A DNA stretch of 64,000 nucleotides from Actinomycetota bacterium (GCA_041658225.1 JBBAAN010000002.1:2124-66123); one strand, 5' to 3'; shown: positions 32,092 through 54,846, counted from the stretch's first letter. Notes: generated from the sequence alone by a model not told the origin. A program made the numbers and translations.

Positions 32092-32094
32092 TGC

Positions 32095-32751
32095 CTACCT
32101 TGCGCTCGGAGTTGGGGTCGGACTTGCGGTCGCGGTGGGAAGGACAACCCCGCCCGCCGGCGCGGGCTGGAAGCCCGGACCGTACCCGGTGGTGTAGATC
32201 TTCATGGACAGAGCGCTGGTCATCCGTGACATCCCGCCCGCCCCGGGAGCGCCCGGCGTGAGGCTGACCGAGATCACCTGGGTCGCGCGCTGCAGGCTCT
32301 CCAGACGGCTCAGGAAGTCCGACATCTGGAAGTAGCCTCCCTCGACGGCCAGAGCCACCTGGATCACATTCACTCCCCCAACACCCACTGCCTTCCCGCC
32401 GGCACTCTGCGCGGTCAGCGGAGAGGGCGCCCCTGGAGAGATCGAGTTCACGTCGACCCCGGACCTGGCGGAGATCTCGACGATCCGCCGGATAAAGCCA
32501 GGCAAATCTGGGGTGTCGGGAATCTTCTCGGAGAACTGCGCGATCTCGGCCTGGATTTCGGGTGCCCGGCGCTTGAGTTCCTCCAAACGCGCGATCTGAG
32601 CGCGCAGCCGGCTCTCCTCGCTCTGAGCTTCCTGCCTGGCCTGGTTCGCCTGGTCGATCTTGCCCGAGGTTGGCTTCCAGGAGGCCAGGTAGAACACGGC
32701 CACCAGCACCACGGCAAGCACGGCCGCCCCCGCCACGTAGGCGCGCTTCAT
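32095..32751 (-). CDS. pilO: Type IV pilus assembly protein PilO-like: bitopic, with a coiled coil.
   Basis: Single N-terminal TM, coiled-coil ARQEAQSEESRLRAQIARLEELKRR; position after pilN. Confidence 0.6.
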   Translation of the reverse strand: MKRAYVAGAAVLAVVLVAVFYLASWKPTSGKIDQANQARQEAQSEESRLRAQIARLEELKRRAPEIQAEIAQFSEKIPDTPDLPGFIRRIVEISARSGVDVNSISPGAPSPLTAQSAGGKAVGVGGVNVIQVALAVEGGYFQMSDFLSRLESLQRATQVISVSLTPGAPGAGGMSRMTSALSMKIYTTGYGPGFQPAPAGGVVLPTATASPTPTPSAR

Positions 32752-33398
32752 TTGGCGCCTCCTGAGGCAGTCGGCACCGCGTAGCGGCGGGTGAAGGCGG
32801 CCGGAGTCAGGTCAATGGTAGAGGAGAAGTTGGCCACCTTGCGTCCGGCCAGGTCGGCCTTGGTGGTGTTGGACAGGTAGGGGTTGGCGAACTGCTTTCC
32901 CTCCCCCATACGCACCAGCCACCCGGCCACCCCAAGATAGTCGAAGCTCACCCCGGAAAAGCTGAGAGTACCGATCGAGACGGCCTGTCCGGCCGGCAGT
33001 ACGGCAGTGGCCGAAACGGCGCCTGAGAAGCTGGTCAACCAGGTGTCCCCGGGGATGAGCATGCTGACATCTCGCAGGATAGTCGACCAGCGAACCTCGG
33101 CCTGGAGCGCTTGGGCCAGCATCGTCTTCTTCTGAGTCAACAACTGGTCGAGGCGCCCATACTCCTGGAGGCTGACTACCTTCGTCTGAAGCTCGCGGTT
33201 CGTGGCCTGCTGCTGCGCCAGGGCATCCTCGGCCGAGGAAAGCTGACCACGGTGGAACAGCGCCAGCGCCACCAGCACGACGATGAACCCCGCCAATCCC
33301 ACCACCAGGCCCGCCAGCATCCGCCGGGTGCGGCGCTTCTCCGCAATCTCGGGAGGCAGCAGGTTCACGCGGACCATGCCCCCGCCCAACTCGGTCAT
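32748..33398 (-). CDS. pilN: Type IV pilus assembly protein PilN.
   Basis: N-terminal VRVNLLPPEI (PilN INLLP motif) followed by TM and coiled coil; translationally coupled to pilM and pilO. Confidence 0.7.
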   Translation of the reverse strand: MTELGGGMVRVNLLPPEIAEKRRTRRMLAGLVVGLAGFIVVLVALALFHRGQLSSAEDALAQQQATNRELQTKVVSLQEYGRLDQLLTQKKTMLAQALQAEVRWSTILRDVSMLIPGDTWLTSFSGAVSATAVLPAGQAVSIGTLSFSGVSFDYLGVAGWLVRMGEGKQFANPYLSNTTKADLAGRKVANFSSTIDLTPAAFTRRYAVPTASGGAK

Positions 33399-34438
33399 CT
33401 CGACGCTCCCAAGGCCAGGCCGATCGGAACCGTCATCACCGGCTCAGCCCAGGGCAACTGCTCGGCCGGCATGTTGAGCTTCCCGACCTTGAGCGCCGCA
33501 AGCGGGTGCGCCGGCTCGACCGACAAACGCAACGCCGCCGAGAGTCGCTCGCGCAGCCCCGCGAGGTTCGCCCCTCCGCCGGAGACCACCGCGCGGCTCA
33601 GGGGAAGCGAGTCGACCTGGGCGCGGTAGTAGTCCAGGGATCCCCGGATCTCATCCACGAACGCCCCGACGGCACGGTCCACCACCGCCGCCGGACTGCC
33701 CGGCTCGACAGGCCCCAGGCCCATGCGCGCCTTGAGTCCCTCGGCGTCCTCCCAGCCCAGGTTCGTCTCCCGAACCAGCGCCTCAGTGATGTCGTCGCCG
33801 CCCATGATCAGGATGCGCACGAAGCGCGGAACTCCGGCCGCGTGAACGAGGATGTTGGTGACGCTCCCCCCAATGTCGATCAGGGCCTCGGCGCCGCCCA
33901 ATCCCAGCCCGCTTCCCCCGGTCACCGAGCGCAGCACCGCGAACGGGGTCAGGTCGACCATGATCGGCTTCAGCCCCGCTCCCGAGATCGTGTCTACCAA
34001 GCCACCTACCATGTCCTTTGACGCGGCCACGAGCAGGATGCGCAGCATGGCCTGGCCGGACTCCGAGGTGAAGCGGTCGATCGCCTGGTAGTCGAGAATC
34101 GCCTGCTCGACCGGGATCGGGATGTACTCCTGGACCTGCAGGGCCAGCGAGGCGCGGAACTCCTTGTCCTCCAGTTCCGGCAGGTCCACCTGGCGAACCA
34201 TCACGCGCTGGCTGGCCACGCCCAAGACAACCTGCTTGCCTCGAAAGCCGGACCGCTTCCAAAGCCTCCCCAGCGCCGCGCGCACGGCCCCGGCGTCCTG
34301 GATCTCTCCGTCCTTGACCGCCCCGCGCGCAAGGGGAACCTGCCCGAACGCCTCGAGGGTCGCGCCGCCGCGAACAAACGAGACCTGAGCGCCGCGCACG
34401 GCGCTGGTCCCCACGTCGAGCCCAATGATCCGGCTCAT
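33395..34438 (-). CDS. pilM: Type IV pilus assembly protein PilM, an actin-like ATPase fold.
   Basis: N-terminus MSRIIGLDVGTSAVRGAQV and overall FtsA/PilM-like architecture. Confidence 0.85.
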   Translation of the reverse strand: MSRIIGLDVGTSAVRGAQVSFVRGGATLEAFGQVPLARGAVKDGEIQDAGAVRAALGRLWKRSGFRGKQVVLGVASQRVMVRQVDLPELEDKEFRASLALQVQEYIPIPVEQAILDYQAIDRFTSESGQAMLRILLVAASKDMVGGLVDTISGAGLKPIMVDLTPFAVLRSVTGGSGLGLGGAEALIDIGGSVTNILVHAAGVPRFVRILIMGGDDITEALVRETNLGWEDAEGLKARMGLGPVEPGSPAAVVDRAVGAFVDEIRGSLDYYRAQVDSLPLSRAVVSGGGANLAGLRERLSAALRLSVEPAHPLAALKVGKLNMPAEQLPWAEPVMTVPIGLALGASR

Positions 34439-34439
34439 G

Positions 34440-34685
34440 CTAGCCCCGCCCTTGTCCCTGGACGCGCACGAAACGGTCCGACAGATAGCGATCCACGTCC
34501 GCGGAACGAATGCGGTAGTTCTTACCGACCCGGATTGCTCCGAGGTGACCCGCCTTGATAAGCCGGTAGACCGTCATGTTGGAAACCCGCATGACGCCGG
34601 CCACCTCGTCGACCGTGAGAAGCCGGTCGTCCAGGTAGGTCGCTCTCTTGGTGCCCAAAGACGGCCCCCTTGTGTGGCAGCCCAA
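34440..34685 (-). CDS. Small excisionase/MerR-like helix-turn-helix DNA-binding protein; start codon uncertain (TTG).
   Basis: Motif LLTVDEVAGVMRVSNMTVYRLIKAGHLGAIRVGKNYRIRSADVDRYL typical of the excisionase-family HTH domain. Sits between pilD and pilM behind a consensus-like promoter. Confidence 0.55.
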   Translation of the reverse strand: MGCHTRGPSLGTKRATYLDDRLLTVDEVAGVMRVSNMTVYRLIKAGHLGAIRVGKNYRIRSADVDRYLSDRFVRVQGQGRG

Positions 34686-34886: not shown

Positions 34887-35726
34887 CTACCGCCCGAGCA
34901 AGTGGGAGTAGGCCTCCGCCAAAGGACTTCCGGCGAAGAGCCCCACCAGTCCCCCGAGCGCTAGGAACGGACCGAACGGGATCATGTCCTTGCGGCTGCG
35001 CTTGCCCGACCCGATCAGCACCAGGCCGCTCACCCCTCCGAGAAGGAAGCCGGCAAAGAGTCCCACCACCAGGCTGCGCCAACCGAGGAAACCGAGGTAG
35101 AGCCCCAAGACGGCGGCGAGTTTGACGTCACCCATGCCCATCCCGCCCGGCCGGATGACCGCCAGCAACAGGAAGCCTCCCCCGGCGACCAGACCCGCAA
35201 GCACCGCTCCACCGTAGGCGCCCCAACCCGCCTCTCCAGCCAGCACGGGAATGACAAGCAGCACCAACCCCGCAATCGCCGTCGGGTAGGTCAACCGATT
35301 CGGGAGGATTCGGTGTCCGGCGTCGATCAAGGCCAGGGCCAGCAGCGCCCATGCGAACCAGAGATAGGCCGGTAGCGCCCAGGAAGCGCCGACCTTGGCT
35401 GCCACACCGGCGAACAGAACCCCGGTAGCCAACTCGATCAGCGGGTAGCGGATCGAGATCGGCGCGCGGCAGTCGCGGCAGCGCCCGCGAAGCAGCAGGT
35501 AGCTCAGGACGGGGATGTTGTCCCGCGCGCGGATCGGCGCGCCGCAGCAAGGGCAATGGGATCCGGGCCTGGTCAGGGATTCCTTGCGTGGCAAGCGATA
35601 CACGGCCACGTTCATGAAAGAGCCGAAGATCAGACCGTAGAGCCCCGATACGACTACGAGGAAGACCTCCAAGAAGACCCCCGAGCACACCAGCCGCCGA
35701 AGGGAGACGGCCCGCTCAAGCCGCAC
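34887..35726 (-). CDS. pilD: Prepilin peptidase (A24 family).
   Basis: Zinc-binding CPCCGAP...CRDCRAP cysteines, catalytic D-containing polytopic membrane domain. Confidence 0.85.
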   Translation of the reverse strand: MRLERAVSLRRLVCSGVFLEVFLVVVSGLYGLIFGSFMNVAVYRLPRKESLTRPGSHCPCCGAPIRARDNIPVLSYLLLRGRCRDCRAPISIRYPLIELATGVLFAGVAAKVGASWALPAYLWFAWALLALALIDAGHRILPNRLTYPTAIAGLVLLVIPVLAGEAGWGAYGGAVLAGLVAGGGFLLLAVIRPGGMGMGDVKLAAVLGLYLGFLGWRSLVVGLFAGFLLGGVSGLVLIGSGKRSRKDMIPFGPFLALGGLVGLFAGSPLAEAYSHLLGR

Positions 35727-35779: not shown

Positions 35780-37000
35780 TCAGCCGGTCTTCTTGACGTT
35801 GTCGATCTCGGCCTCCGCGGTGTTGCCGGCCAGGTCATAGGCCACGACCTTGTAGTCGTAGTAGACGTTCTTCACGGCCGTCAGGTCCACGAAGGTTGTC
35901 GCCGTCGCGGGCATGGGCGATCCGATCGACAGCCCCCAAGAGCTCGTCCCATGGGCCCGGCGGAATACCGTGTAGCCGCCGAGGTAGGCGTCGGTCGAGG
36001 CGCTCCAGGTCAGGGTGCCCGTCGAGTGAGACCACCCCAGGTTGCCGGGCACGGTGGGGGCCTGGCGGTCCAGGATGATCGTCGCGAAAGCCACACCGCT
36101 GACGTTACCCGCGCCGTCGCGGGCTCGAACCCAAATACTGTTCGGCCCGTCGGGACCCAGGAGAGAGACCATCTGGGCCTCGGTGTACGTCTGCCACGGA
36201 CCCCAGTTGATCCCGTCGTGGGAGAACTGGATCTCCGCGAAGGCGCACAGGTCCACCACGAGCACATGAGCGGTGAGGTCAACAGTGGTCGTGTAGCCAA
36301 CGGAGATCGCGAAGTGGATCGACACCAGCGGAGGGGTGACGTCTCCCATACACTGCGACACGCTCGGTGTGGGGGTTGGCGTCGGTGTGGGGGTTGGCGT
36401 CGGTGACGTGGGCGAGGACGTCGGGGTGGGCGAGCCGTGGACGTTCACCACGCCCGGGGTGAAGACCGAGCTGAGCTTGGACATCCGTTCGGTGCCCTCG
36501 ATACCAGGCCGCACGACTACCGCAACCACCGTCACCCGCTTGGCCGCCATCGCATCCGCGTCGCCCCCGGGCGTCCCGGGCGACGAGCTGGCCCAGGTCA
36601 CGTACTGGTAGATGTCGATGGTCGAGTTGGCCGACACGACCGTGACCTTGTGTTCGATCTGCCCGTCCACAATCAGCGGTTCGGCTCCGCCTCCGGCGTC
36701 GTAGGAGGGAACCGGCGCGTCCGAGACGTCGTAGTCGGGGGACTTCGGGTCGGTACTGTGTGTGGGCAGCGACGTCAGGCCGATGGCCGAGTAGGGCAGG
36801 TTGCGGGTGAACTCGAGATGGCTCTGAGCCGTGGCCGAAGCGGCCGTGCGTTGCCGGGACATGCCGAGCAGCCGCAGCCCCAGCCCCAGGGAGCCCGCGA
36901 CCGCAAGCACGCCGACCGCCAGGATGAACCCGGCGATCGTCACCTCGAGGATCGTCAGGCCCTCATCCCCGCGCGCCAAGCGCTTGAAGCGAATCAGCAT
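35780..37000 (-). CDS. Prepilin-type protein with a class III signal peptide, a PT-repeat linker and a C-terminal fibronectin type III-like domain. Copy 1.
   Basis: Leader MLIRFKRLARGDEG|LTILEV (Glu at +5); TPTPTPTPTPTP linker; FN3-like WSASTDAYLGGYTVFRR...YDYKVVAYDLAGN. Confidence 0.65.
   Translation of the reverse strand: MLIRFKRLARGDEGLTILEVTIAGFILAVGVLAVAGSLGLGLRLLGMSRQRTAASATAQSHLEFTRNLPYSAIGLTSLPTHSTDPKSPDYDVSDAPVPSYDAGGGAEPLIVDGQIEHKVTVVSANSTIDIYQYVTWASSSPGTPGGDADAMAAKRVTVVAVVVRPGIEGTERMSKLSSVFTPGVVNVHGSPTPTSSPTSPTPTPTPTPTPTPSVSQCMGDVTPPLVSIHFAISVGYTTTVDLTAHVLVVDLCAFAEIQFSHDGINWGPWQTYTEAQMVSLLGPDGPNSIWVRARDGAGNVSGVAFATIILDRQAPTVPGNLGWSHSTGTLTWSASTDAYLGGYTVFRRAHGTSSWGLSIGSPMPATATTFVDLTAVKNVYYDYKVVAYDLAGNTAEAEIDNVKKTG
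36365..36430. repeat. Short tandem repeat (18-bp unit cggtgtgggggttggcgt x2 plus degenerate copies) encoding the PT-repeat linker of the FN3 pilin-like protein.
   Basis: Direct reading of sequence; translates on minus strand to TPTPTPTPTPTP. Confidence 0.7.
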
Positions 37001-37050
37001 CTCGCGTCACCCCCGTTCATCACCATTCAGTCTCGACAGGTGCTCTCCCC

Positions 37051-38529
37051 TTAGGGCTTGAGCTCCTCCCACGAGTACCTCACCAGGCTCGTATCCCCGA
37101 AGCCGACGATTCTCTCCACCCGGGAGTCGTAGATGACCTGGAAGCCGTTCTTGACGTCCATGTTGCCCGCGTACAGGGCCCCATTCCCATGGTTGTCGCT
37201 GTTCTTGAATGCCATCTTGCCGGTCGTGTAGAAGATGGTCGCCACGTCCGAAGTGACCTGGACCTTGTTCTTCCCCCAGATCGAGCAGTCGCCACCCTGG
37301 TCGCTGCAACTCATCTCCTGCCCGGGCGGCGCGTACAGGCTCACAATCACCAGAAGCGGCCTGATGACGCCGGGCTGTGTAGAGGCCACAGTGAGGTTGT
37401 CGCCGTCAAAAGCGATGGGCGCGTTGGTCACGACCATCGTGTCCCCGGCGATCGTCCAGTTGCCCGGAAGCGTCAGAACGGTGCTCTGCGAAGCGTTTGA
37501 CTGCCAGACGGCGTAGTTGCCCGAGAACGCTGTGGCCGGGGCCTTGGGCAACCCGTAGTCGTCGGCCTGGCCGGCATTGAAGCGAGCCACCGCGTCGGCG
37601 CTGCCACCGGTGTACGGCGGCGCGGGCGGGGACCCGTAGGTGTGCACCCCCATGCCCGGCTGGTACAGCACGCTCGGGTCAAATTCCGGCAATGTCAGAC
37701 GCTCAGGCTGGGTCGGGCACGGGTCGTGCTTGTTCTTGATCAGTAGCCCGCCCACGAGGGAGCTGATGTTGCCCGCGGCCGAGGCGTTCCCGGTGATCGA
37801 ACCCCCAATGATGTCCGAGAACCCCGACGCAGGCGGACAGACCGCGTTGCCCGCCGTCGCGTTCCCTCCTACGACCGCGCCGTTGGAGAGAAGGATGTTG
37901 CCCCCGCCGGAGGCGTCCCCGCCGGCCCACGCGTCGCGCGAGATCCCGACGTTGTTGCCCGCGGAGAGGTTCCCCTTGTAGACCACAACGGACCCGACCA
38001 TCGAGCAGTTGTTCGCCAGCGTCATGTCATTGACCGAGTAGACATCCCCGGTCACCCCGCAGTTCGTGCTGCCGCCTATGTCGAGGGTGGTGCTGGAGAA
38101 CATCGCATACTTGAAGGATGAGGGCGGAGCCAGGATCTCCTTGATCTCCCGGCTCACCAAGCCGTAGGCGGTCTTGCTCCTGCCGCTTGCCACGATCGTC
38201 TTCCACCCGAGGTGGGGAGAGTCGTGAGTGATGGCCACGTCGTAGGTACCGCCCGGAACCGCGATCCCTGTGGCCCCGTCCCAGGACGGGTTCTGGTTGA
38301 GCTGGTAGACCGCCTCGTTGAGCCCGGCCTCCGACACCGCCAGGGCCTGGTTCCAGTGCACCTGCCTGACTGTGGAGGTGTGCGAGTGGGTGCCGGTCGC
38401 CAGGATCGTGGCCACGAGCATGGTCAGCACGAACAGAACGAGCATGGCCGTGATCACGGCCATTCCCCGCTCATCCTCATGTGCCCGCCGTGCCGGCGCG
38501 AGAAGCCTGAATCTGGCCATATGCCTCAC
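37051..38529 (-). CDS. PilX_N-domain pilus-associated protein with a beta-helix-like G/N-rich repeat region. Copy 1.
   Basis: N-terminus ERGMAVITAMLVLFVLTMLVATILA matches PilX N-terminal domain architecture. The central region has GGNATAGNAV-type repeats. Confidence 0.55.
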   Translation of the reverse strand: MRHMARFRLLAPARRAHEDERGMAVITAMLVLFVLTMLVATILATGTHSHTSTVRQVHWNQALAVSEAGLNEAVYQLNQNPSWDGATGIAVPGGTYDVAITHDSPHLGWKTIVASGRSKTAYGLVSREIKEILAPPSSFKYAMFSSTTLDIGGSTNCGVTGDVYSVNDMTLANNCSMVGSVVVYKGNLSAGNNVGISRDAWAGGDASGGGNILLSNGAVVGGNATAGNAVCPPASGFSDIIGGSITGNASAAGNISSLVGGLLIKNKHDPCPTQPERLTLPEFDPSVLYQPGMGVHTYGSPPAPPYTGGSADAVARFNAGQADDYGLPKAPATAFSGNYAVWQSNASQSTVLTLPGNWTIAGDTMVVTNAPIAFDGDNLTVASTQPGVIRPLLVIVSLYAPPGQEMSCSDQGGDCSIWGKNKVQVTSDVATIFYTTGKMAFKNSDNHGNGALYAGNMDVKNGFQVIYDSRVERIVGFGDTSLVRYSWEELKP

Positions 38530-39086
38530 CCCGAGTTCCTAAGCTGAATGGCCGAAGACAGCACGATGTCGGTCGCCGGATTGGTGAGTCCCAGCGGAAA
38601 CGTGATCGCGATCTGAGTGAGCGGCGACGTGCCCGGGGCCGTGGCCTGCGGCGTCTGGGCACCCGCGTAGTAGTAGCTGAAGATGTCGGGGCTCTTGAGC
38701 TTCGACACGATCTGGCGGCTCCCGCCGCCCGCGGTCCGGTAGAGCAGAGAGCCCGACACCGAGTAGACGACGCGCGTCACCTGGCCGTTCCTATACGTGT
38801 CGATGTCCAAGGACGATGCGGTCGACGGATGCACCTTGGCCGTCTGGCGGATCTCCTTGGTCATGGAGTCCATCGCCAGCCGCACCTGGTCGATGGCCTC
38901 GCCTCGCTGCTGCGAGAACGAGGAGGAGCGCATCACGCTCTCGAGCACGCCCAAAGTGGCGCCAATAATCACGGCCATAAGCGCGACCGTGATCATCAAC
39001 TCCACGACCGTGAAGCCACCCTCCGCTTCGCGCCGTCCAGCCAAGCTTCTGATTGCGGATCGTCTCCCGGGAGCAACTATCGACAT
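38526..39086 (-). CDS. Minor pilin / pseudopilin with a prepilin-type N-terminal cleavage-methylation domain. Copy 1.
   Basis: Leader ...RREAEGG|FTVVELMITVALMAVIIG; PilW/PilV-like size (186 aa); 4-nt overlap with downstream PilX-like gene. Confidence 0.7.
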   Translation of the reverse strand: MSIVAPGRRSAIRSLAGRREAEGGFTVVELMITVALMAVIIGATLGVLESVMRSSSFSQQRGEAIDQVRLAMDSMTKEIRQTAKVHPSTASSLDIDTYRNGQVTRVVYSVSGSLLYRTAGGGSRQIVSKLKSPDIFSYYYAGAQTPQATAPGTSPLTQIAITFPLGLTNPATDIVLSSAIQLRNSG

Positions 39087-39308
39087 CGAACACCACCCCC
39101 ATCTCTCAGGCCAAGTGTCGACAAGCCGAATCCCCGGGTGAATAGACCACCCGGGGGGTTCTGCTGCCCAGTGAATGGCCCGAATGGGGGTGGTTATCGG
39201 GCTGACGGCCCGGCGAGCAGGCGCTGCTCGCCCCCATCCTCGAACGCAAGAAACACTGCGGCTAACGGAGGGTGGCTGACCGATTCCTCGAGCGAGCCGA
39301 GTCGACGG

Positions 39309-40850
39309 TCAGGGCTTCAGTTCCTCCCAGGAGTACCTGACCAGGCTCACGTCTCCGAACCCGACCACGCGCTCGACGCGCGAGTCGTAGGTAACTTCGA
39401 AACCGTTCTTGACGTCCATGTTGCCGCCGTAGAGGGCGCCGTTGCCGCGGTTGGCGCTGTTCTTGAACGCCATCATCCCGGTCGTGTAGAAGAGGGTGGC
39501 CACGTCCGAGCTGATCTGGACCTTGTTCTTTCCCCAGATCGAGCAGTCGCCACCTTGGTCGCTGCAACTCATCTCCTGCCCGGGCGGCGCGTACAGGCTC
39601 ACGATCACCAGGAGTGGTTTGATCACTCCCGGTTGGGTCGACGTAATTGTGATGTTGTTGCCGTCGAAGTTGTTGCCGTCGAAGACGATCGGCGCGTTGG
39701 TCACGATCATGGTGTTCCCGGCCAGTGTCAGTTCCCCCGGCAACACCACCGGGGTGGATTGCGAGGTGTTGGACTGCCAGATCGCGTAGTTGCCGGAGAA
39801 CCCCGTCACATCGGCCTTGGTCAAGCCGTTGTCGCTGACGCTCTTGTCGACGTTGAAGCGGGCGGCCGCGTCGGGGGTGCCCCCCGTGTAGGGAGCGGGA
39901 GGCAGGGATCCGTAGGTGTGAGTATTCATGCCCGACTGGTACATCACACTGGGGCTGAAAACCGGCAGGCTCACCTTCGGCGGCTGCGAGGCGCAGGGGT
40001 CGTGCTTGTTCTGGACGTTCTTGGCCCCTTCGACCTTCACCGTGATCGAGCCTGAGGCGCGGGCGTCACCCTTCACCGTAGCCCCGCTGTTGCCGATGTC
40101 CGACCAGCCCCCGGCGGAGGTGCAGTCCGCCTCCCCGGCGGTTGCGTTACCCCCCACGACCACGTTGCCGGCCAGTACCTGGTCCCCGCCGCCCGAGGCG
40201 TCCCCGCCCGTCCAACTGTCTCGGGAGATCGTGACATTGTTACCTGCCGTGAGGTTGCCCCGGTAGACCATCACCGAGCCCTCGACCTTACAGCTGTTGG
40301 CAAGTGTCATGTTGTCCACCGAGTAGATGTCTCCGGTGACCACGCAGTTCGTGCTGCCGCCAACATCCAGAGTCGTATTGGAGAAGATCGCGTACTTGAA
40401 AGACGGAGGCGGCGCCAGCACCTCCCGGATCTTCCGGCCGACCATCCCGTAGGCCGTCTTGCTTCTGCCGCTGGCGACTAGGGTCTTCCAGCCAAGGTGT
40501 GGAGTGTCGTGGGTGACCGCCACACAGTAGGAACCGCCCGGCACAGCGATCCACTTGTTGGGATCTGAGTCACAAGGCTTGTTCGCCGGGGTCGTTCCGG
40601 GCCACGTCGGGTCCTGGTTGAGTTGGAACACGGCCTCGTTGAGGCCGGCTTCCGCGACCGCTAGAGCCTGGTTCCAGTGCACCTGCCGCACCGTGCTGGT
40701 GTGTAGGTGAGTGCCCGTGGCCAGGATCGTTGCCACCAGCAGGCTCAGGACGAACAGCACGATCACGGCCGTTATCACGGCTATGCCCCGCTCGTCCTCG
40801 TGCGCCCGCCGCACTCGCGCAGACAACCTGGTTGGAGCCATGGGACTCAC
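39309..40850 (-). CDS. PilX_N-domain pilus-associated protein, copy 2.
   Basis: N-terminus ERGIAVITAVIVLFVLSLLVATILA; about 65% identity with copy 1 at termini and a divergent central region. Confidence 0.55.
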   Translation of the reverse strand: MSPMAPTRLSARVRRAHEDERGIAVITAVIVLFVLSLLVATILATGTHLHTSTVRQVHWNQALAVAEAGLNEAVFQLNQDPTWPGTTPANKPCDSDPNKWIAVPGGSYCVAVTHDTPHLGWKTLVASGRSKTAYGMVGRKIREVLAPPPSFKYAIFSNTTLDVGGSTNCVVTGDIYSVDNMTLANSCKVEGSVMVYRGNLTAGNNVTISRDSWTGGDASGGGDQVLAGNVVVGGNATAGEADCTSAGGWSDIGNSGATVKGDARASGSITVKVEGAKNVQNKHDPCASQPPKVSLPVFSPSVMYQSGMNTHTYGSLPPAPYTGGTPDAAARFNVDKSVSDNGLTKADVTGFSGNYAIWQSNTSQSTPVVLPGELTLAGNTMIVTNAPIVFDGNNFDGNNITITSTQPGVIKPLLVIVSLYAPPGQEMSCSDQGGDCSIWGKNKVQISSDVATLFYTTGMMAFKNSANRGNGALYGGNMDVKNGFEVTYDSRVERVVGFGDVSLVRYSWEELKP

Positions 40851-41329
40851 CCCTGATTCCGAAGCTGGATGGCCGATGAGAGCACGATGTCGGTGGCCGG
40901 GTGCGTAAGCCCGAGAGGGAAGGTGATCATGATCTGCGTCAGCGGCGCGGTGCCGGGGGCCGTCGTCGCCGGGGTCTGAGAGCCGGCGTAGTAGTAGTTG
41001 AAGACATTGGGTGTCTTCAGGCGAGCGACCACCTGGCTGCTTCCGCTCCCCTGCGTCCGGTAGAGGATGTAGGGGGGAATGCTGCCTGACACCGAGTAGA
41101 CGACTTTCGTTGGCACACCGCCCACGTACGTATCGATGTCCAGGTTCGAAGCGGTGGACGGACGCACCATGGTGGTCTGGCGGATCTCCTTGGTCATGGA
41201 ATCCAGGGCAAGCCGCACCTGGTCCATGGCCTCCCCGCGCTGCTGAGAGAACGACGCGGAACTCATCACGTTCTCGAGCACGCTCAGGGTCGCGCCCACG
41301 ATAATCGCGAACAACGCGACGGTGATCAT
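40847..41329 (-). CDS. Minor pilin paralog, copy 2. The annotated ATG lies after the predicted cleavage site, so the class III leader has no canonical start codon upstream.
   Basis: In-frame upstream sequence encodes ...TRLREAEGG|FTVLELMIT, but an in-frame TGA lies 23 codons upstream of the ATG. No ATG/GTG/TTG occurs between them, and the FN3-2 stop (TAG) lies inside this stretch in another frame. Confidence 0.5.
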   Translation of the reverse strand: MITVALFAIIVGATLSVLENVMSSASFSQQRGEAMDQVRLALDSMTKEIRQTTMVRPSTASNLDIDTYVGGVPTKVVYSVSGSIPPYILYRTQGSGSSQVVARLKTPNVFNYYYAGSQTPATTAPGTAPLTQIMITFPLGLTHPATDIVLSSAIQLRNQG

Positions 41330-41369
41330 GAGCTCGAGAACGGTGAAACCGCCCTCGGCCTCGCGGAGT

Positions 41370-42599
41370 CTAGTCTTGGCCCTTTTGATTGAGTATCACC
41401 GCCGTCGTGGTATTCCCGGCCTTGTCGTAGGCCTCGACCATGAAGTCGTAGTAGCCACTCCCCGCCCCAGCGTCGTAGTAGCTGGTAGCCGTCGAAGGGT
41501 TCGAGCCGATCGGGCTGCCCCAATCAGTGATTCCGGACGCCCGGCGGTAAACCCGATACCCGCTCAGGTAGGTGTCCGACGAGGCGCTCCACGCGAGGGT
41601 CTTGCTCTGCTTGTTCCAGTTCAGACTACCCGGCGCGGTTGGCGCCTGCCGGTCCAGCACAATGCTGGCCTGGACGATCCCGCTCTCCCGCCAAGCCCCG
41701 TCTCGGTAGCGCGCATACACGGTCTTTTGTCCGTCCGAGCCCGAGAGTGTGTAGATCACCGACGGCGAGTAGGCCTGCCATGCCTTCCAGTCCGTCCCGT
41801 TGTCGGAGAACTGGACCTCGATGACCGGACAGGCATCGGTAGCACCGAGATGGAGAGTGACATCCGCGGACTTGGCAAAGCCGGTGGTGATGGCGAACGC
41901 AATCGAGGTGTTGGTGGGTGCGGCCGGCGGGTTCTCATCCAAACATACCGTCGGACTCCCCGAAGGAGTGGGCGAAGGACTAGCTGTGGCCGTCGGAGTC
42001 AAAGTCGGGACCTGTGTGGGAGCGAAGCTGGCGGGCGGGAACGACACCACCCCGGGAGTAAAGATCGAACTGAGCTTCGCATAGTCGGAGGTACCGCCCA
42101 CCTGCGGGCGTGCCCACCTTGCCACCACTGTCACGCGCTTGGCCGCCTCCGCCGTTCCGCTACCCCCCGGAGTCCCCTTCGAGGAACTCACCCACGTCAC
42201 GTACTGGTAGATCTCCATGGTGGAGTTAGCCTGCGCAACTGTCGTGGTGTGGTCGATCTGGCCTCCCACAATAAGCGGTTCGGCCCCGCCTCCCGCGTTG
42301 TAGGAGGCGACCGGCGTATCGGATACGTAGTAGTCGGGGGACTTCGGATCGGTGCTGTGGGTCGGCATGGACGTCAGGCCAATGGCCGAATAGGGCAAGT
42401 TCCGCGCGTACTCCAGGTACTTCTGGGCCATTCCACTTGCGCCGGTGCGCTGGCGTGCGTCGCCGAGCAGGCGGAGGCCAAGTCCGAGCGATCCGGCCAC
42501 GGCCAAGATGCCGACCGCCAGGATGAAGCCGGCAATGGCCACCTCGAGGATCGTCAGACCCTCGTCGCGCCGCAATGCACGGCCAAGCCGGCTCAGCAT
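41370..42599 (-). CDS. Prepilin-type FN3-domain protein, copy 2; start at MLSRLGRALRRDEG|LTILEV.
   Basis: Same architecture as 35780-37000: leader, S/T/P-rich linker and C-terminal FN3-like domain. Confidence 0.65.
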   Translation of the reverse strand: MLSRLGRALRRDEGLTILEVAIAGFILAVGILAVAGSLGLGLRLLGDARQRTGASGMAQKYLEYARNLPYSAIGLTSMPTHSTDPKSPDYYVSDTPVASYNAGGGAEPLIVGGQIDHTTTVAQANSTMEIYQYVTWVSSSKGTPGGSGTAEAAKRVTVVARWARPQVGGTSDYAKLSSIFTPGVVSFPPASFAPTQVPTLTPTATASPSPTPSGSPTVCLDENPPAAPTNTSIAFAITTGFAKSADVTLHLGATDACPVIEVQFSDNGTDWKAWQAYSPSVIYTLSGSDGQKTVYARYRDGAWRESGIVQASIVLDRQAPTAPGSLNWNKQSKTLAWSASSDTYLSGYRVYRRASGITDWGSPIGSNPSTATSYYDAGAGSGYYDFMVEAYDKAGNTTTAVILNQKGQD

Positions 42600-42652
42600 G
42601 CCGCAACCACCCCTAGTCGTCCCTAATCCCCCCAGACGTGCCCAGAGTATCG

Positions 42653-43708
42653 TCAAGAAGACCCTATCAGTTTAGGCCCCACCGGCCGGGCCGCACGGGT
42701 CCCCAGCAGCAGCCAGCGAAGTAGACGGAGGGCGGGTGCCCGGCGACGCACCAACCGGCGCTTGCGCCAAAGGCGAGGGAACAGCTTCATAGCGTCCGGG
42801 ATTGCCCTGAGCGTGGCGCGCTCGCGCAACGCGCAATAGGCAACGAGGGCCAACTCGCGAGCCAGGATGGCCGGGAGACTCGGCAGGAATGTCGCGAGGG
42901 TCTCGTTCTTGACGCCCACCAGGTAGCGGTTCCTGACGCCGATGCGCCGCACCCACTCTTGCGAGTGCTCCCTCGACTCCGGTCGGAACCTGCGGTTGTG
43001 GCGGCCGACCGCACCGGCGACGTACATTGCCCGCCACCCCGCGGACTTGGCCCGCCACGCCAGATCCACGTCTTCCCGGTAGCAGAACAGGTCCTCGTCC
43101 AAGACCTCGCCCGAACAAGCCACGTCCTCGAGCATCCTCCGTCGGTACAACCCGGCGGCGGCCGAGACCCCGAAAACCCACTCGTCGCGCGCGTACTGCC
43201 CGCGGTCCTCCTGCCCCGCGCCCCGGTCCAGCGCACGCCGATCGGCTCGCACGAAGAGTCCCGTGGAGTCAAAGATCGGCGTGGCCTCCAAAGCGCCCGC
43301 CCGAAGCAGCTTTCCCGTCAGCGAGCCCACCCGCCGCGCGGCGAGGCCCGCCCGCAGCAGTCTCTCCACGTAGTCCGGCTCGAGAACCACGTCGGGATTG
43401 ACCAGGAGAACCCACGGCGCCGTGCCCAGTGCCAGGCCCTGGTTCACCGCCGCCGCGAACCCCAGGTTGCCGGCATTGCGCAGCAGAGTTGCCTGCGGCC
43501 AGAGTCGCGAGATTATCTCCGCCGAGCCATCAACCGATCCGTTGTCGACACAAACAAGCGACACGGGAACGGTCTGAGCTCGAAGGCAGGCAAGGCACTC
43601 CGCAAGACTGGCCGCGCTGTTGAAGCTCACCACCAACGCATCCACGCTCGGCCATCCGCCAGTTCGGCTCTCACCTCCCGCCTGCCCGACCGACGGTGCT
43701 CGCATCAT
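42653..43708 (-). CDS. Family 2 glycosyltransferase.
   Basis: GT2 signature VVSFNSAASLAECLACL...VDNGSVDGS...LVNPD (DxD-type) in first 120 aa. Confidence 0.8.
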   Translation of the reverse strand: MMRAPSVGQAGGESRTGGWPSVDALVVSFNSAASLAECLACLRAQTVPVSLVCVDNGSVDGSAEIISRLWPQATLLRNAGNLGFAAAVNQGLALGTAPWVLLVNPDVVLEPDYVERLLRAGLAARRVGSLTGKLLRAGALEATPIFDSTGLFVRADRRALDRGAGQEDRGQYARDEWVFGVSAAAGLYRRRMLEDVACSGEVLDEDLFCYREDVDLAWRAKSAGWRAMYVAGAVGRHNRRFRPESREHSQEWVRRIGVRNRYLVGVKNETLATFLPSLPAILARELALVAYCALRERATLRAIPDAMKLFPRLWRKRRLVRRRAPALRLLRWLLLGTRAARPVGPKLIGSS

Positions 43709-46449
43709 TCCTCCGACGCCGCATAGGCCCGATCGGCAGCCCGAGAGGCCCCGGATGATTGCCCGTACCTGCCACCCTCCTGAGCCCCCGCCCCCTCTGA
43801 TATCCCCCAGCTATACAGCAACGCGTCCGCCTTTCTCAAGCGCCCGGCCGCCCACAAAGCCAGAGGGAAGAAGACCCCGAACAACCCGCCTCCGACCAGC
43901 GCCGCCAGTCCCGCTCCGATGCGGCCGGCCGGCGCCACAACGCCCGCCGCAAATCCCGCGGCCGCCCCTGCCAGCCCCCCCGCAAGCCCAGACGCCCAGA
44001 TCCTGGACATCTCAATACCCCTCGGGTACCCGAACGCCCGTCGGAACAACCCCAGGAACAGCGCTGCCCCAGCCACCAAGGCGACCGTCGGTCCCCAAGC
44101 CGCGCCGGCAATCCCGAACCGGCCAACCAGGAACACCGACAGTGGGACATTCACCGCGGCGATCAGCACCCCCACACGCGCCAGGAGACCGGGCTGGTTG
44201 AGACCCTGCGAAAACACCGCGAAAGTCCCGGTGGCTGCGTTGAGCGCAGCCCCCAAAGCCAGAATGCGAACGAGCGAGGCGGCCTGCGCCCCGTGCGCAC
44301 CAAGGGCCCCGCCCACCCATGCTCTGATTGCCTCGGGTGCCAGGATCGCGAGCAGGGCGAACGCCCCAGCGGCGACCCCAACCAAGAGCCGGGTCGCCCG
44401 GTCGAATAGACGACGCAGCGCCTCTTCCTCCCCCCTGCCGCGAAGGTCTGCCGCCGCGGGCATGACCCCCGCGATCAACAGCAACGTCAGATCCCTTAGC
44501 GCCTTCACGACTCGGGCTGCCACCTCATACCCAGCCAGAACGCCCAACCCCAGGAAGCGCGCGACGATGATGCGGTCGGCATAGGTCATCGCGAGCTCCG
44601 CCAGCACGCTCAGTTGCAGCTTGCCCCCGAAGCCGACCAGAGCCCCCAACTCCCCCGAAGACACTGAGCGCGCGCGGATCCTGACATCGGGGAACACACG
44701 CCGCAGCGCCAACCCGTTCAGACACGGGTTGATCAGGGCCCCCAGTACCGCGATAGCCGCAAGGGCGTAGAGGCCACCGCCGAGATGCAAAGCCATCAGG
44801 GTAGCCACAGTCTGAGGCACCATCAGCCGGATGCTGATCCGAGAGGTAACGTCCAGACGCTGCCGACCCACGAGTCCGGCCGCGTATACCCCTCCCACAC
44901 CGTTCAAGAAGAAGCTCGCCACGCCGGAGAGCAGCGCTGCCGCGGCCTCACCCTGCAGGTGGGCCGGCACCCGGAAAACGGACATGAACGCGGCGCGCCC
45001 CGCCCAACAAGCGGGGACAACCAACAGCAACAGCAGCACATAGATCGCCAGGCCCGTACTCAGGGTCCGGCTCATGGCGTGCCGATCCCCACGCGCATGG
45101 CCATCTGCCACCCTCTTCGCGAACGCGTTGGAAGCCCCGAGATCCAGCAACCCCAGATGCTGGGCCAGGATCCCCGTGAGCGACCAGACCGCGAACCGTG
45201 AAGTTCCCAGCCGGGAAAGGGCGTAGGGAACCACGATCAGCGCGGCGACCATTCCCGCCACTCGGGCTAGAGCATTCTCAAGAGTGTTGCGCGGGAGCCG
45301 CGCCAGCGAATCCAGCGAGCCGGGCCTGGCCGTCGCGTGGCACATTTCTTCGAACTGCGCCGTTGCCGCCTGCCAACCGTAGTGCTCCGAGACCCGCCCG
45401 GCGGCCAGGTTACCCAGCCGCTCTCGCCGCTGCGGATCCGCGAGCAATCCAGAGAGGGTGCCGGCCAATCCTGAAGCCCCATCCGCCAGCCGGAAAATGA
45501 CCGCCGTCCCTCCAACGACCTCCAAGTTCGGGACGTGATCACTGGCCAGCACGGCCCGGTGAGCGGCCATCGCCTCCAAGAGCACTGGATGGGTTCCCCC
45601 GACTTCGGTGGGGACCACAAACACCGCGGCGTGGCTGGCCAGTTCCCGGAATCCCTTGCCGAACAGATAGCCCGCGAAGACCACCTCCGGGCCGGCGAGC
45701 TCACGCAAACGAGACTGGTACTCCCGGGCATAGGGGGCGTCACCAACTATGACCAGCCGCATCCCGGCGTCCCGCTCCACCTGCCGCCAGGCCTCGAGTA
45801 GCAGGTGCGCGTTGTTCTCCGGTACCAGCCGCCCTACGAATAGCACGTACTTGCCGGCTTCCAGGCCCAATCTGGCGAGCGTCTCCGTGCCCGGTTCAGC
45901 GATCGGGTCCACCCCGTAGCGCACGACCGCGGGACGCTTGCCGAAGCGGCGGCTCATCTCCTCGGCCACCGCGACGGAATCGGTGACGCACAGGTTGGGG
46001 GCAAACACCGAGATTCGCTCCGCGAAGCGCAGATACCGCCGCGCTAGCCGCCCCCACTTCTCCCGCCTGGAATCCGCCCCATCCACATTGAGGATCGTCC
46101 GCAATCCCAGAAGCCTCGCCAACAGGACGATCGGCGCATTGCCGGCGGTGGCGTACACGGCCACATCGGGCCGGGGCCTCAGGCGGAAAGCTGCATGCAG
46201 GGTGGAGAGCAGGGTGTGCAGGAATGTCTCGAGATGCTTGCTGTGCAATACCGGCAACCGGACCAGACGGACTCCTCGGTACTGTGAAGGCCCTTTCCCT
46301 CCCCGACAGTAGACCGTGACCTCGTGGCCCTCCGCCGCCAGGCGGGTCGCGAACCCCTCGACGGCCGTCTCGACGCCCGAGTAGGAGGCAGGGATACCGC
46401 GGCTTCCCAGGAACGCGACCCGCAGCCGCAGGTCGGTTTGCCCATCCAT
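43705..46449 (-). CDS. Fusion protein: an N-terminal GT4-family glycosyltransferase joined to a C-terminal Wzx-like (MOP superfamily) polytopic flippase domain.
   Basis: N-terminal half has GT4 features (VAFLGSRGIPASYSGVETAVEGFA, C-terminal EX7E-like region VFVVPTEVGGTHPVLLEAMA). C-terminal half has about 12 hydrophobic helices with Wzx-like N-region LSRLGTSRFAVWSLTGILAQHLGLLDLG. Confidence 0.7.
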   Translation of the reverse strand: MDGQTDLRLRVAFLGSRGIPASYSGVETAVEGFATRLAAEGHEVTVYCRGGKGPSQYRGVRLVRLPVLHSKHLETFLHTLLSTLHAAFRLRPRPDVAVYATAGNAPIVLLARLLGLRTILNVDGADSRREKWGRLARRYLRFAERISVFAPNLCVTDSVAVAEEMSRRFGKRPAVVRYGVDPIAEPGTETLARLGLEAGKYVLFVGRLVPENNAHLLLEAWRQVERDAGMRLVIVGDAPYAREYQSRLRELAGPEVVFAGYLFGKGFRELASHAAVFVVPTEVGGTHPVLLEAMAAHRAVLASDHVPNLEVVGGTAVIFRLADGASGLAGTLSGLLADPQRRERLGNLAAGRVSEHYGWQAATAQFEEMCHATARPGSLDSLARLPRNTLENALARVAGMVAALIVVPYALSRLGTSRFAVWSLTGILAQHLGLLDLGASNAFAKRVADGHARGDRHAMSRTLSTGLAIYVLLLLLVVPACWAGRAAFMSVFRVPAHLQGEAAAALLSGVASFFLNGVGGVYAAGLVGRQRLDVTSRISIRLMVPQTVATLMALHLGGGLYALAAIAVLGALINPCLNGLALRRVFPDVRIRARSVSSGELGALVGFGGKLQLSVLAELAMTYADRIIVARFLGLGVLAGYEVAARVVKALRDLTLLLIAGVMPAAADLRGRGEEEALRRLFDRATRLLVGVAAGAFALLAILAPEAIRAWVGGALGAHGAQAASLVRILALGAALNAATGTFAVFSQGLNQPGLLARVGVLIAAVNVPLSVFLVGRFGIAGAAWGPTVALVAGAALFLGLFRRAFGYPRGIEMSRIWASGLAGGLAGAAAGFAAGVVAPAGRIGAGLAALVGGGLFGVFFPLALWAAGRLRKADALLYSWGISEGAGAQEGGRYGQSSGASRAADRAYAASEE

Positions 46450-46451
46450 CG

Positions 46452-47924: not shown

Positions 47925-47935
47925 TGTAGTCCCCT

Positions 47936-47953
47936 GGGGTTGGAGTCAACCCC
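47936..47953. promoter_or_regulatory. Perfect 7-bp inverted repeat GGGGTTG-gagt-CAACCCC in the divergent intergenic region, 12 bp upstream of the sugar-transferase start codon.
   Basis: Seen directly; could be an operator or a 5'-UTR hairpin; function unknown. Confidence 0.3.
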
Positions 47954-51696: not shown

Positions 51697-51714
51697 TTCA
51701 GAGCGAAACCGGTA

Positions 51715-54843: not shown

Positions 54844-54846
54844 GAC

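Follow-up and report, generated by a model that had tools for sequence, protein, structure and literature searches.

Gene content and duplication at the locus

A pilus locus from an uncultured Actinomycetota MAG, representing a monoderm host, carries six consecutive minor pilin genes that fall into three paralogous pairs. The question that this raises is what these proteins build and why they are present twice. The initial annotation had described a duplicated cassette of minor pilin and PilX-like genes, bracketed by two FN3-domain proteins. We examined this in the window, meaning the whole stretch of DNA analysed (64 kb). The six genes and the spacer between them are as follows, with a slash marking the predicted cleavage site of each leader.

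41370-42599, minus strand: I2 (FN3-pilin 2), modular PilV/GspI-like minor pilin, leader RRDEG/LTILEV
40847-41389 (or to 41329), minus strand: J2, small minor pilin, leader ...REAEGG/FTVLEL
39309-40850, minus strand: K2 (513 aa), large GspK/PilX/ComZ-type minor pilin, leader ...HEDERG/IAVIT
39087-39308, minus strand: unique 222-nt spacer between K2 and J1, predicted highly structured RNA
38526-39086, minus strand: J1 (186 aa), small minor pilin, leader MSIVAPGRRSAIRSLAGRREAEGG/FTVVEL
37051-38529, minus strand: K1 (492 aa), large GspK/PilX/ComZ-type minor pilin, leader ...HEDERG/MAVIT
35780-37000, minus strand: I1 (406 aa; FN3-pilin 1), modular PilV/GspI-like minor pilin, leader RGDEG/LTILEV

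Read along the minus strand, the order is I2, J2, K2, J1, K1, I1 and then pilD. The members of each pair are 57-76% identical (BLASTP: I1/I2 57%, E 2e-145; K1/K2 70%, E 0.0; J1/J2 76%, E 2e-96) and direct DNA repeats are 71-86% identical across 300-nt blocks. This duplication is far above chance expectation, and the six minus-strand ORFs and the repeats confirm both the duplicated cassette and the gene order described earlier. We also compared 108 related loci (28 from genomes, 80 from metagenomes). All of them contain a single I-J-K set in the order pilA-I-J-K-pilD. Because every relative has one set, two I-J-K sets fit the six genes better than a cassette bracketed by FN3 proteins. For the same reason, the modular pilin architecture, with one I-J-K set, is ancestral to the clade and the duplication alone is specific to this genome. 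The only unusual element of the locus is the second copy; the component types were already known.

The surrounding genes are those of a pilus machine.

56570-58255, minus strand: pilB, in the pilus motor/platform block (53626-58255)
54847-56634, minus strand: pilT (ORF; alignment with relatives begins at residue 239)
53626-54843, minus strand: pilC, in the motor/platform block
51715-52182, minus strand: pilA1, candidate major pilin
50854-51369, minus strand: pilA2, candidate major pilin
34887-35726, minus strand: pilD, prepilin peptidase (A24_N_bact 2.6e-35, Peptidase_A24 4.1e-15)
34440-34685, minus strand: small HTH_17 gene, in the conserved, syntenic downstream block (31279-34685)
33395-34438, minus strand: pilM (Pfam PilM_2; synteny)
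32748-33398, minus strand: pilN (Pfam PilN; synteny)
32095-32751, minus strand: pilO (Pfam PilO; synteny)
31279-32091, minus strand: PilP-like proline-rich protein, in the same block, conserved by synteny

The pilB, pilT and pilC products share 61-72% identity with their syntenic counterparts at every related locus. The two pilA products have PilA/GspG-type N-termini with N_methyl matches of 1.2e-8 and 1.4e-8. No secretin was found among the ORFs that were read and scanned in the window, the interval from pilA to pilD holds no GspH/FimU-type fourth minor pilin, either in the window or in the 108 relatives, and PilY1 was not found. The best explanation has three parts: that the locus encodes a secretin-less, retractile type IVa pilus; that the six genes are two full, paralogous sets of three core minor pilins, I2-J2-K2 and J1-K1-I1; and that these act by the stepwise mechanism proposed below. 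Taken jointly, we consider this explanation probable. Within it, I1 may partner either J1-K1 or J2-K2.

The I proteins are modular pilins

The N-termini of all three families are those of type IV pilins, with N_methyl (PF07963; IPR012902)/TIGR02532 matches across the pilin families. Matches to the PilV, GspI, GspJ, GspK and PilX_N models are all below curated thresholds and mostly cover the N-terminal helix. As read from the translations, I1 and I2 have class III leaders with Glu at +5. The longest ORF of I2 spans 41370-42656, but its likely start is M20 at 42599, which gives a 409-aa protein identical to the database protein P0009 (409 aa). Sub-threshold matches to PilV (TIGR02523) were obtained with I2 (3.1e-6) and I1 (4e-5). 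In the I family (16 members), sub-threshold matches were to PilV in 13, GspI in five and HpsB in four, and N_methyl was matched at E<=0.1 by eight.

In I1, the pilin module extends to approximately residue 181 and is followed by a disordered PT linker (182-215), a first beta-sandwich (~225-310) that weakly resembles OmpL47/Big_13 (OmpL47 1.9e-5, sub-threshold) and a second beta-sandwich (~322-404) of the FN3 type. I2 is built similarly: its linker is PT/S-rich and leads to two beta-sandwich modules at the C-terminus, of which the final one is FN3-like. Pfam fn3 (PF00041) was matched by none of the 16 family members at E<=0.1. By contrast, the family profile matched FN3 structures in the PDB over profile positions 317-407 (chitinase A1 FN3 1k85, E 3.8e-9; FN3con, 2.4e-4), the AF2 model predicts two beta-sandwiches at pLDDT 80-90, and Foldseek matched this model to tandem FN3 pairs with a probability of 1.00. 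From the family profile and the fold search, though not from Pfam, the predicted C-terminal domain of I is FN3-fold. The class III leaders, PT linkers and FN3 fold proposed in the initial annotation are thus borne out, whereas a Pfam fn3 domain is not. We take IPR003961 to be fibronectin type III. In a ranking of modular-pilin architectures by frequency, this entry falls within the top 15 (PMC8179133). By definition (Raynaud et al. 2021; PMC8179133), a modular pilin joins a pilin module at its N-terminus, through a linker, to at least one domain that is not pilus-specific; the I proteins have a pilin module, a linker and two beta-sandwich domains.

The K proteins resemble beta-solenoid tip pilins

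Both K proteins have G(-1) and a hydrophobic helix with Thr at +5 and no Glu5, as expected for a GspK-type subunit. The database counterpart of K2, P0002, is 510 aa. In K1, an N-terminal helix precedes a pilin sheet of four strands, after which comes a beta-solenoid of ~320 residues; K2 also carries a beta-solenoid. The secondary-structure order in K is four strands, the solenoid and then a conserved C-terminal RVERxxGFG...W.EL, with the C-terminus modelled at pLDDT <50; this order is compatible with a solenoid inserted into the pilin fold. AF2 gave models of moderate confidence (pLDDT ~70, with one of five K models above 62). In these models K is predicted to combine a pilin fold with a large triangular beta-solenoid, as in ComZ/PilX-type tip pilins, and ComZ is the top structural match at a sequence identity of 12-14%.

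Profile matches at the N-terminus were below threshold. PilX_N (PF14341) scored 13.6 bits with K1 and 17.2 bits with K2 against a gathering threshold of 25.5, and at most sub-threshold matches were seen, in three of eight K-family members. GspK matches were also sub-threshold (K2 8.7e-5; best 5e-7). The tapirin family model NF051896 gave no significant match, and K1 itself was not significant. So the earlier description of these proteins as PilX-like holds for a GspK/PilX-like N-terminus joined to a beta-solenoid, but not at the Pfam PilX_N threshold. Detection of fn3 or PilX_N, on which the initial annotation was to stand or fall, formally failed at Pfam thresholds, and it was the finer profile and structure tests that recovered the FN3 and GspK/ComZ-type assignments.

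The J proteins, the J2 start and the spacer

J1 (EAEGG/FTVVEL) and J2 (EAEGG/FTVLEL) have class III leaders with Glu at +5. N_methyl was matched at E<=0.1 by all 14 J-family members (family alignment A3), with J1 at 19.1 bits against a cut-off of 21.2. Sub-threshold GspJ (TIGR01711) matches were 4e-9 for J2 and 4.2e-8 for J1, and the family also matched HpsC and Verru_Chthon cassette protein C. From these profiles J appears to be a small, plain pilin that is weakly GspJ-like.

The start of J2 is unusual. No ATG, GTG or TTG occurs in the stretch that runs from the in-frame TGA upstream of the gene to the cleavage site. An in-frame ATC occurs at 41389, where orthologues carry GTG or ATG, with a Shine-Dalgarno-like motif (GGCGGTGA) 5' of it. 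The first canonical ATG is at 41329 and a start there would cost the signal peptide. An ENA assembly is 100% identical, and its gene caller's product for J2 is a leaderless, truncated protein of 155 aa. The missing canonical start of J2 raises the possibility that set 2 is impaired.

Homology between J1 and J2 begins only at the REAEGG codons, and the 222-nt spacer lies 5' of J1. Its predicted fold has a z-score of -5.9, with none of 200 shuffles as stable, and a predicted long-range helix pairs GGGGGUGG, a Shine-Dalgarno-like stretch 5' of J1. No copies of the spacer were found elsewhere in the window or in related loci, and it had no match in Rfam. On the basis of the predicted fold, the spacer, placed between the two sets, may work as an attenuator or control translation, and it may permit their separate regulation.

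Selection on the two copies

Paralog dS is about 0.9-1.2 (0.87-1.19), showing that the paralogs are old. Pairwise dN/dS values for the three pairs are 0.30, 0.22 and 0.21, and the maximum in any 40-codon window is 0.70. These values, at dS near 1, indicate that both copies, including those of J, have long been under purifying selection. The central regions are the most divergent part of the paralogs, as noted previously, but dN/dS there is <1 and the diversifying selection that had been suggested is not supported.

Proposed mechanism and alternatives

We propose that PilD cleaves the class III leaders of the major pilins as well as those of I, J and K. I, J and K would then form a staggered membrane complex that primes polymerisation of the major pilins, with the pilA1 and pilA2 products as the likely fibre subunits, and this complex would be carried outward as the pilus tip. 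Because it has no Glu5, K would be the topmost subunit. Its beta-solenoid would cap the fibre, likely as a ligand-binding head, and given its resemblance to ComZ, tapirin and the ice-binding-protein fold the ligand could be DNA or polysaccharide. The two Ig/FN3-fold modules of I, on a flexible PT-rich linker and possibly glycosylated, would extend alongside the cap, serving as a spacer or a second adhesive module. The pilus-displayed binding module put forward in the initial annotation is a reasonable reading, with binding as a putative function; that the proteins are prepilin-type and belong to a type IV pilus locus is supported. Within the clade, only this genome retains a second set, which is old, diverged and subject to purifying selection. 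This set most likely lets one machine make pili whose tips come in two forms of different specificity or function.

It is also conceivable that one set, most likely set 2, is a redundant duplicate heading to pseudogenisation and that a single tip complex is made. The J2 start, its leaderless gene call and the retention of two sets in none of the 108 relatives favour this. We nevertheless think it quite unlikely given that all six ORFs are intact and that dN/dS points to lasting constraint on both copies. In addition, ATC is a permitted rare start in table 11, preceded here by the Shine-Dalgarno-like motif, and the I2 stop codon lies inside the J2 leader, where J2 translation could be coupled to that of I2. 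A different objection concerns the place of I. Its ~30-residue disordered PT-rich linker resembles wall-spanning linkers and its bulky C-terminal extension cannot fit the fibre body, so the I proteins might be membrane-anchored, pilin-like proteins whose PT linker crosses the cell wall and presents the Ig/FN3 modules at the cell surface, independently of the pilus. This is very improbable because I directly precedes J-K in the 108 related loci and has a canonical Glu5 leader with a PilV/GspI-like N-terminus, and because the S. sanguinis tip accommodates modular pilins (PMC9934059).

The remaining alternatives concern the ligand. The K proteins could be ComZ-like DNA receptors, in which case the pilus, or one tip variant, would be a competence pilus that serves natural transformation. 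Structurally K matches ComZ best, ComZ binds DNA and has a proposed tip location with an adjacent minor pilin (PMC6561018), and one of two cyanobacterial core minor-pilin sets is dedicated to competence (bioRxiv 10.64898/2026.02.12.705559). However, K-ComZ identity is too low to place the two DNA-binding lysines of ComZ, the fold match is equally good to cellulose-binding tapirins and ice-binding proteins, and comEA/comEC were not seen in the parts of the window that were read; we therefore hold this to be unlikely. The K solenoid could also be a tapirin-like polysaccharide adhesin assisted by the I modules, with the two sets recognising different polymers or substrates. This idea seems doubtful to us since the tapirin sequence matches of K1 are not significant, the beta-solenoid is a generic fold and carbohydrate-active enzymes are absent next to the locus.

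Beyond the two-set explanation, a wider reading can be offered only tentatively, namely that this actinobacterial clade uses a three-subunit tip whose nucleating pilin has itself become a modular adhesin and that this genome makes two switchable, possibly glycosylated pili. If so, the nucleating PilV/GspI-type pilin would be a long modular adhesin (PT-linker, Ig-like, FN3) beside a ComZ-like solenoid cap, the second, diverged set and a glycosylation island specific to the lineage would give one motor two antigenically and functionally different pili, and the structured leader between the sets would be the switch.

Comparison with known systems

That characterised minor pilins do not show this architecture, as had been claimed, is in substance incorrect, since ComZ, cyanobacterial PilX and S. 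sanguinis PilB/PilC precede it. Prior descriptions exist for beta-solenoid tip pilins, for modular pilins, FN3-bearing ones among them, and for more than one core minor-pilin set. The structure of Thermus ComZ, a beta-solenoid tip pilin, has been solved (PMC6561018). Compared with T. thermophilus ComZ (PDB 6QVI, partner PilA2), K shows no sequence-level match and its likeness comes from a moderate-confidence model. ComZ is not a predicted PilD substrate, whereas K has a conserved G(-1) leader, and the host here is monoderm and the locus secretin-less. Caldicellulosiruptor tapirins (PDB 4WA0, 6N2B, 6N2C) have marginal sequence similarity to K, and the sources consulted present them solely as cellulose binders whose genes adjoin the pilus locus.

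The GspI-GspJ-GspK and FimU-PilVWX systems correspond to this locus in the predicted pilin types and in the proposed arrangement of a Glu5-less K on top with a domain putatively inserted in its pilin fold; the best NCBIfam matches of the N-terminal helices are PilV/GspI, GspJ and GspK, all below curated cut-offs. The insertion in GspK is an alpha-domain whereas the putative one in K is a beta-solenoid, and I has extra modules. The core sets H-I-J-K and FimU-PilV-PilW-PilX have four pilin types; here there are three, without H/FimU or PilY1. In Myxococcus xanthus, a precedent for multiple sets that prime distinct pili, one pilus machine uses several alternative priming/tip sets (PMC7541494, PMC8833165), but that host is diderm and its sets comprise PilY1 and four minor pilins at separate loci.

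S. sanguinis PilA-PilB-PilC resembles our system as a monoderm type IVa pilus with three minor pilins and grafted modules (PMC8179133, PMC9934059), forming a three-pilin tip complex with bulky modules (PMC9934059). Sequence homology between these proteins and those described here was not detected. The S. sanguinis modules are vWA and lectin, as opposed to Ig-like plus FN3 and a beta-solenoid here, and Glu5 is missing there from the small GspI-like PilA, here from the large K.

The cyanobacterial systems have a PilX-type pilin with a bulky beta-solenoid, proposed as a tip plug where PilY1 is absent, and co-encoded with PilV- and PilW-type partners, as is predicted here. The weak HpsB and HpsC matches of the I and J families provide a further link. 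Differences are that cyanobacterial sets are four-membered (PilX, PilV, PilW, FimT) and are ancient conserved subfamilies, whereas ours have three types and arose by a lineage-specific duplication, and that the PilV-type subunit here bears Ig/FN3 modules. Nonetheless, cyanobacterial PilX proteins share the beta-solenoid tip-pilin design (bioRxiv 10.64898/2026.02.12.705559) and, as in Synechocystis, two sets in one genome prime distinct pili, which is a precedent for the arrangement proposed here.

Gene content of the locus

Six intact minus-strand ORFs were found in the order proposed by the initial annotation. Each of two sets codes for a modular PilV/GspI-like minor pilin with a PT-rich linker (I1, I2), a small, weakly GspJ-like minor pilin (J1, J2), and a GspK/PilX/ComZ-type pilin (K1, K2); we refer to J1-K1-I1 as set 1 and to I2-J2-K2 as set 2.

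Features of the pilus locus
52388-53629: Wzy_C (O-antigen-ligase-like) gene, between pilC and pilA1
42653-50712: island of approximately 8 kb between pilA2 and I2, with GT2, a GT4-flippase fusion, an initiating sugar transferase, a double GT2, and a methyltransferase
41370-42656, minus strand: I2, ORF; likely start M20 at 42599, giving 409 aa
40847-41329/41389, minus strand: J2, ORF
39309-40850, minus strand: K2, ORF, 513 aa
39087-39308, minus strand: K2-J1 spacer, 222 nt, unique and predicted to be strongly structured
38526-39086, minus strand: J1, ORF, 186 aa
37051-38529, minus strand: K1, ORF, 492 aa
35780-37000, minus strand: I1, ORF, 406 aa
34887-35726: pilD, directly after I1 in gene order (A24_N_bact, 2.6e-35)
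34440-34685: small HTH_17 (excisionase-type) DNA-binding gene, between pilD and pilM

The six genes are embedded in a complete type IVa pilus locus that is itself inserted between aroE and aroC. On the minus strand, from high to low coordinates, this locus contains pilB, pilT, pilC, the Wzy_C-type gene, pilA1, pilA2, and then the glycosyltransferase/flippase/methyltransferase island; in the same direction after the island are the six minor-pilin genes, pilD, the HTH_17 gene, pilM, pilN, pilO, and a gene for a proline-rich PilP-like protein. Among the window ORFs that were read and scanned, none was seen to encode a secretin, consistent with a monoderm host. The remainder of the window is housekeeping (alaS, mltG, aroK, aroB, pyr/car genes, and ABC transporters). 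The GC content of the window is high (~63-70%), and 21.5 kb of it is 100% identical to an ENA metagenome assembly contig. Scans for sigma-70 promoters and intrinsic terminators were uninformative in this high-GC genome.

The position of the type IVa locus (29833-59394 in the window) between aroE and aroC is seen across the clade, within a shikimate gene neighbourhood that is itself conserved and in which aroK and aroB come after aroC. The HTH_17 gene separates pilD from pilM in virtually all related loci; it may be a dedicated regulator of the pilus genes. In pilT, the longest ORF (54847-56634, minus strand; 595 aa) begins with ~238 residues of acidic, proline-rich sequence, overlapping the end of pilB. 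Relatives align from residue 239 onward only, and this N-terminal region probably reflects an ORF drawn too long, not a true extension. The 345-nt spacer between pilA1 and pilA2 (51370-51714, minus strand) is strongly structured (z about -5.4, simple shuffle test) and could be a terminator or attenuator behind the major pilin gene.

Leaders and domains of the minor pilins

The class III leaders assigned earlier to the FN3 proteins were read in the translations of both I1 and I2 (...DEG-LTILEV, the hyphen marking the cleavage site). Translations of J1 and J2 have ...EAEGG-FTV(V/L)EL, and all four proteins have Glu at +5 of the mature pilin. In K1 and K2 the leader is ...HEDERG-(M/I)AVIT, with Thr at +5, and the cleavage-site Gly is invariant throughout the K family.

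Single-protein scans of Pfam and NCBIfam gave pilin-type matches only, all of them sub-threshold. Against curated profiles, also below threshold, the I family matched PilV (13 of 16 members), GspI (5/16), and cyanobacterial HpsB (4/16); J matched GspJ (best E 4e-9), HpsC, GspH, and Verru_Chthon cassette protein C; and K matched the GspK N-terminus (5e-7), with tapirin matched weakly by two K homologues. The likely pilin-module families of I, J, and K are thus all assigned from sub-threshold matches, yet these are mutually consistent. Neither single-sequence searches nor the K-family profile found anything significant among PDB sequences, and matches of the J-family profile there were confined to pilin N-terminal helices (best E 0.0011).

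The predicted structure of I1 (pLDDT 70, 16 sequences; moderate confidence) has a pilin module, a disordered PT-rich linker at residues 182-215, and two beta-sandwich domains at pLDDT 80-90. The fibronectin type III (FN3; IPR003961) domain was missed by Pfam fn3 in all members of the I family (0/16), but the initial call is right by profile and fold because the I-family profile matched chitinase A1 FN3 (1k85, E 3.8e-9) and consensus FN3 (E 2.4e-4), and a Foldseek search with the I1 model matched tandem FN3 pairs. The first beta-sandwich weakly resembles OmpL47-type and Big_13 domains. In the alignment of the I family, two cysteines of most orthologues do not occur in I1 or I2: one opens the FN3 module (..SC..SG..) and the other is part of a C-terminal KNQCS/KNSC motif. 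A probable disulfide staple was therefore lost in the I1/I2 lineage. Two further cysteines of the family, C252 and one that follows the linker, are kept in all or nearly all members.

The predicted structure of K1 (pLDDT 69, pTM 0.66, 8-sequence alignment) is also of moderate confidence and runs from a long N-terminal helix through four strands into a long beta-solenoid. Its sole significant and top Foldseek match in the PDB was the competence pilin ComZ of Thermus thermophilus (E 1.2e-5). ComZ itself has a GspK-like pilin domain and a solenoid whose nearest relative is an ice-binding protein (PMC6561018), and the K1 model agrees with this pilin-domain-plus-solenoid design. The description of K1 and K2 as PilX-like thus holds if it is taken to mean a GspK/PilX/ComZ-type tip pilin, supported by the GspK profile and the ComZ fold, but not for Pfam PilX_N, where K1 (13.6 bits) and K2 (17.2 bits) did not reach the threshold of 25.5. 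Fold neighbours suggest that the ligand of K could be DNA, as for ComZ, or polysaccharide, as for tapirins.

Conservation in related loci

A word-indexed search of 5.8 billion proteins returned only 8 relatives of K and 15 full-length relatives of I at 30-37% identity, all from uncultured material. An exhaustive profile search gave at least 3,758 K-related cluster representatives at E<=1e-3 and 86 at E<=1e-30; among ten sampled, one reaches the Pfam DUF7305 threshold, three are below it, and six are without a Pfam match. Scans with the K profile located 28 loci in species-representative genomes, each an Actinomycetota MAG, and another 80 in metagenomes. The order on contigs that are long enough is aroE...pilB-pilT-pilC-pilA-I-J-K-pilD-HTH-pilM-N-O-(PilP-like)-aroC. 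A single K is present in all 108 relatives, and a single I-J-K set wherever the contig carries those genes; the minor-pilin duplication was absent from the 28 genome and 80 metagenome loci. Because of this single-set synteny, and because I orthologues align across the pilin part and the C-terminal modules alike, the PilV-like-plus-Ig-plus-FN3 pilin and the ComZ-like pilin are, on comparative grounds, ancestral and conserved components of the pilus of this clade. Together, the locus and its 108 syntenic relatives define a conserved retractile type IVa system in uncultured Actinomycetota.

As judged from the same comparison, four features belong to this genome only: a second minor-pilin set, a second pilA, the Wzy_C gene, and the glycosyltransferase island. 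Tblastn with GT2, the GT4-flippase fusion, and Wzy_C gave zero matches in the 108 related loci, which suggests that the island and Wzy_C provide lineage-specific glycosylation of pilin or surface. One relative (L002, 11337-13459) has a TadE-like gene and a 454-aa vWA-containing TadG-like gene inserted between K and pilD, and two others (L003 and L024) have a similar-sized gap at this position.

Origin and divergence of the two sets

The duplication of the minor-pilin set is real. Direct DNA repeats between the sets are 71-86% identical, and the closest relative of each protein is its partner, at 57-76% identity (K 70%, I 57%, J 76%) versus at most ~40% to anything else. The duplication is old, as judged from its high synonymous divergence (dS 0.87-1.19). 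The I2-J2-K2/J1-K1-I1 arrangement is, from its layout, not a simple whole-set tandem repeat, because the K2-J1 spacer is unique and was searched for a remnant I gene, which would back such a duplication, with none found, and because homology between J1 and J2 begins no earlier than the REAEGG codons.

The initial annotation took divergence in the central regions of the paralogs as consistent with diversifying selection on surface-exposed parts. The divergence is present and is greatest at I residues ~200-300 (linker and first sandwich) and K residues ~221-300 (solenoid), but selection of this kind was rejected as unsupported since no 40-codon window exceeded a dN/dS of 0.70, a value reached in the C-terminal FN3 of I. 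Pairwise dN/dS was 0.30 (I), 0.22 (J), and 0.21 (K). These values come from pairwise Nei-Gojobori comparisons, which are a weak test; site models need closer relatives, of which there are none in databases. The divergent stretches of I and K look like relaxed constraint or functional divergence, with positive selection not demonstrated. At the other extreme, the 3' ends of the K genes (37053-37352 versus 39311-39610) are 86% identical in nucleotides versus 71-78% elsewhere in these genes, and dS is 0.30 at codons ~401-440 versus ~0.9 for other parts, which hints at local gene conversion or strong constraint.

Expression signals of the two sets

ATG, GTG, and TTG are absent between the upstream in-frame TGA of J2 and its G-FTVLEL site (41327-41400, minus strand). 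Where orthologous J genes begin with GTG or ATG, J2 has ATC, with the Shine-Dalgarno-like GGCGGTGA ahead of it; the I2 stop codon falls within the J2 leader, and the automatic gene caller gives a leaderless 155-aa product. The region is identical in the ENA assembly, which may come from the same reads. Partial impairment of set 2 is therefore possible, although its long-term dN/dS argues against an old pseudogene.

The K2-J1 spacer is predicted to fold far more stably than shuffled sequences (z = -5.9 with dinucleotides preserved, -4.3 with a simple shuffle). The predicted fold has GC-rich hairpins and a long-range helix over the putative J1 ribosome-binding site, pairing the Shine-Dalgarno-like GGGGGUGG upstream of J1, so it is possible, speculatively, that each set is under its own control. 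The spacer is neither a repeat nor a mobile element, no copy of it occurs elsewhere in the window or the related loci, and a check for riboswitches and other known RNAs gave no Rfam match.

Proposed tip complex and comparison with known systems

We infer a tip mechanism modelled on the GspI-J-K/HIJK paradigm and on the S. sanguinis PilABC tip complex (PMC9934059). I, J, and K would be processed by PilD, assemble into a staggered complex, prime PilA polymerisation, and finish at the pilus tip. K is without Glu5 and so would take the topmost position, its solenoid acting as plug and adhesin, while the Ig-FN3 arm of I would project next to it via the PT linker. Purifying selection on both sets suggests two alternative tips.

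These results describe a minimal three-member minor-pilin set that is poorly covered by Pfam, show that an I-type subunit is able to bear grafted modules, and add a monoderm case to the developing view that a PilX/ComZ-type pilin with a beta-solenoid takes the place of PilY1 as tip plug/adhesin. The natural duplication makes two tip variants comparable in one background. The practical value is mostly in annotation and in picking targets for structural and binding studies, and no current concept is overturned.

The suggestion that this architecture is not known for characterised minor pilins does not hold, because solenoid tip pilins, modular pilins, and multiple core minor-pilin sets are all already published. 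ComZ and cyanobacterial PilX/HpsA are counterparts of K as beta-solenoid tip pilins, and S. sanguinis PilB and PilC are modular counterparts of I; modular pilins have been catalogued in 264 architectures, with IPR003961 among the 15 commonest (PMC8179133). What is new is the lineage, the type IV pili studied in Actinobacteria having all been of the Tad/Flp (type IVc) kind according to a 2019 review (PMC6916266), together with a minimal three-gene set whose I-type subunit bears grafted modules and a genome-specific second minor-pilin set.
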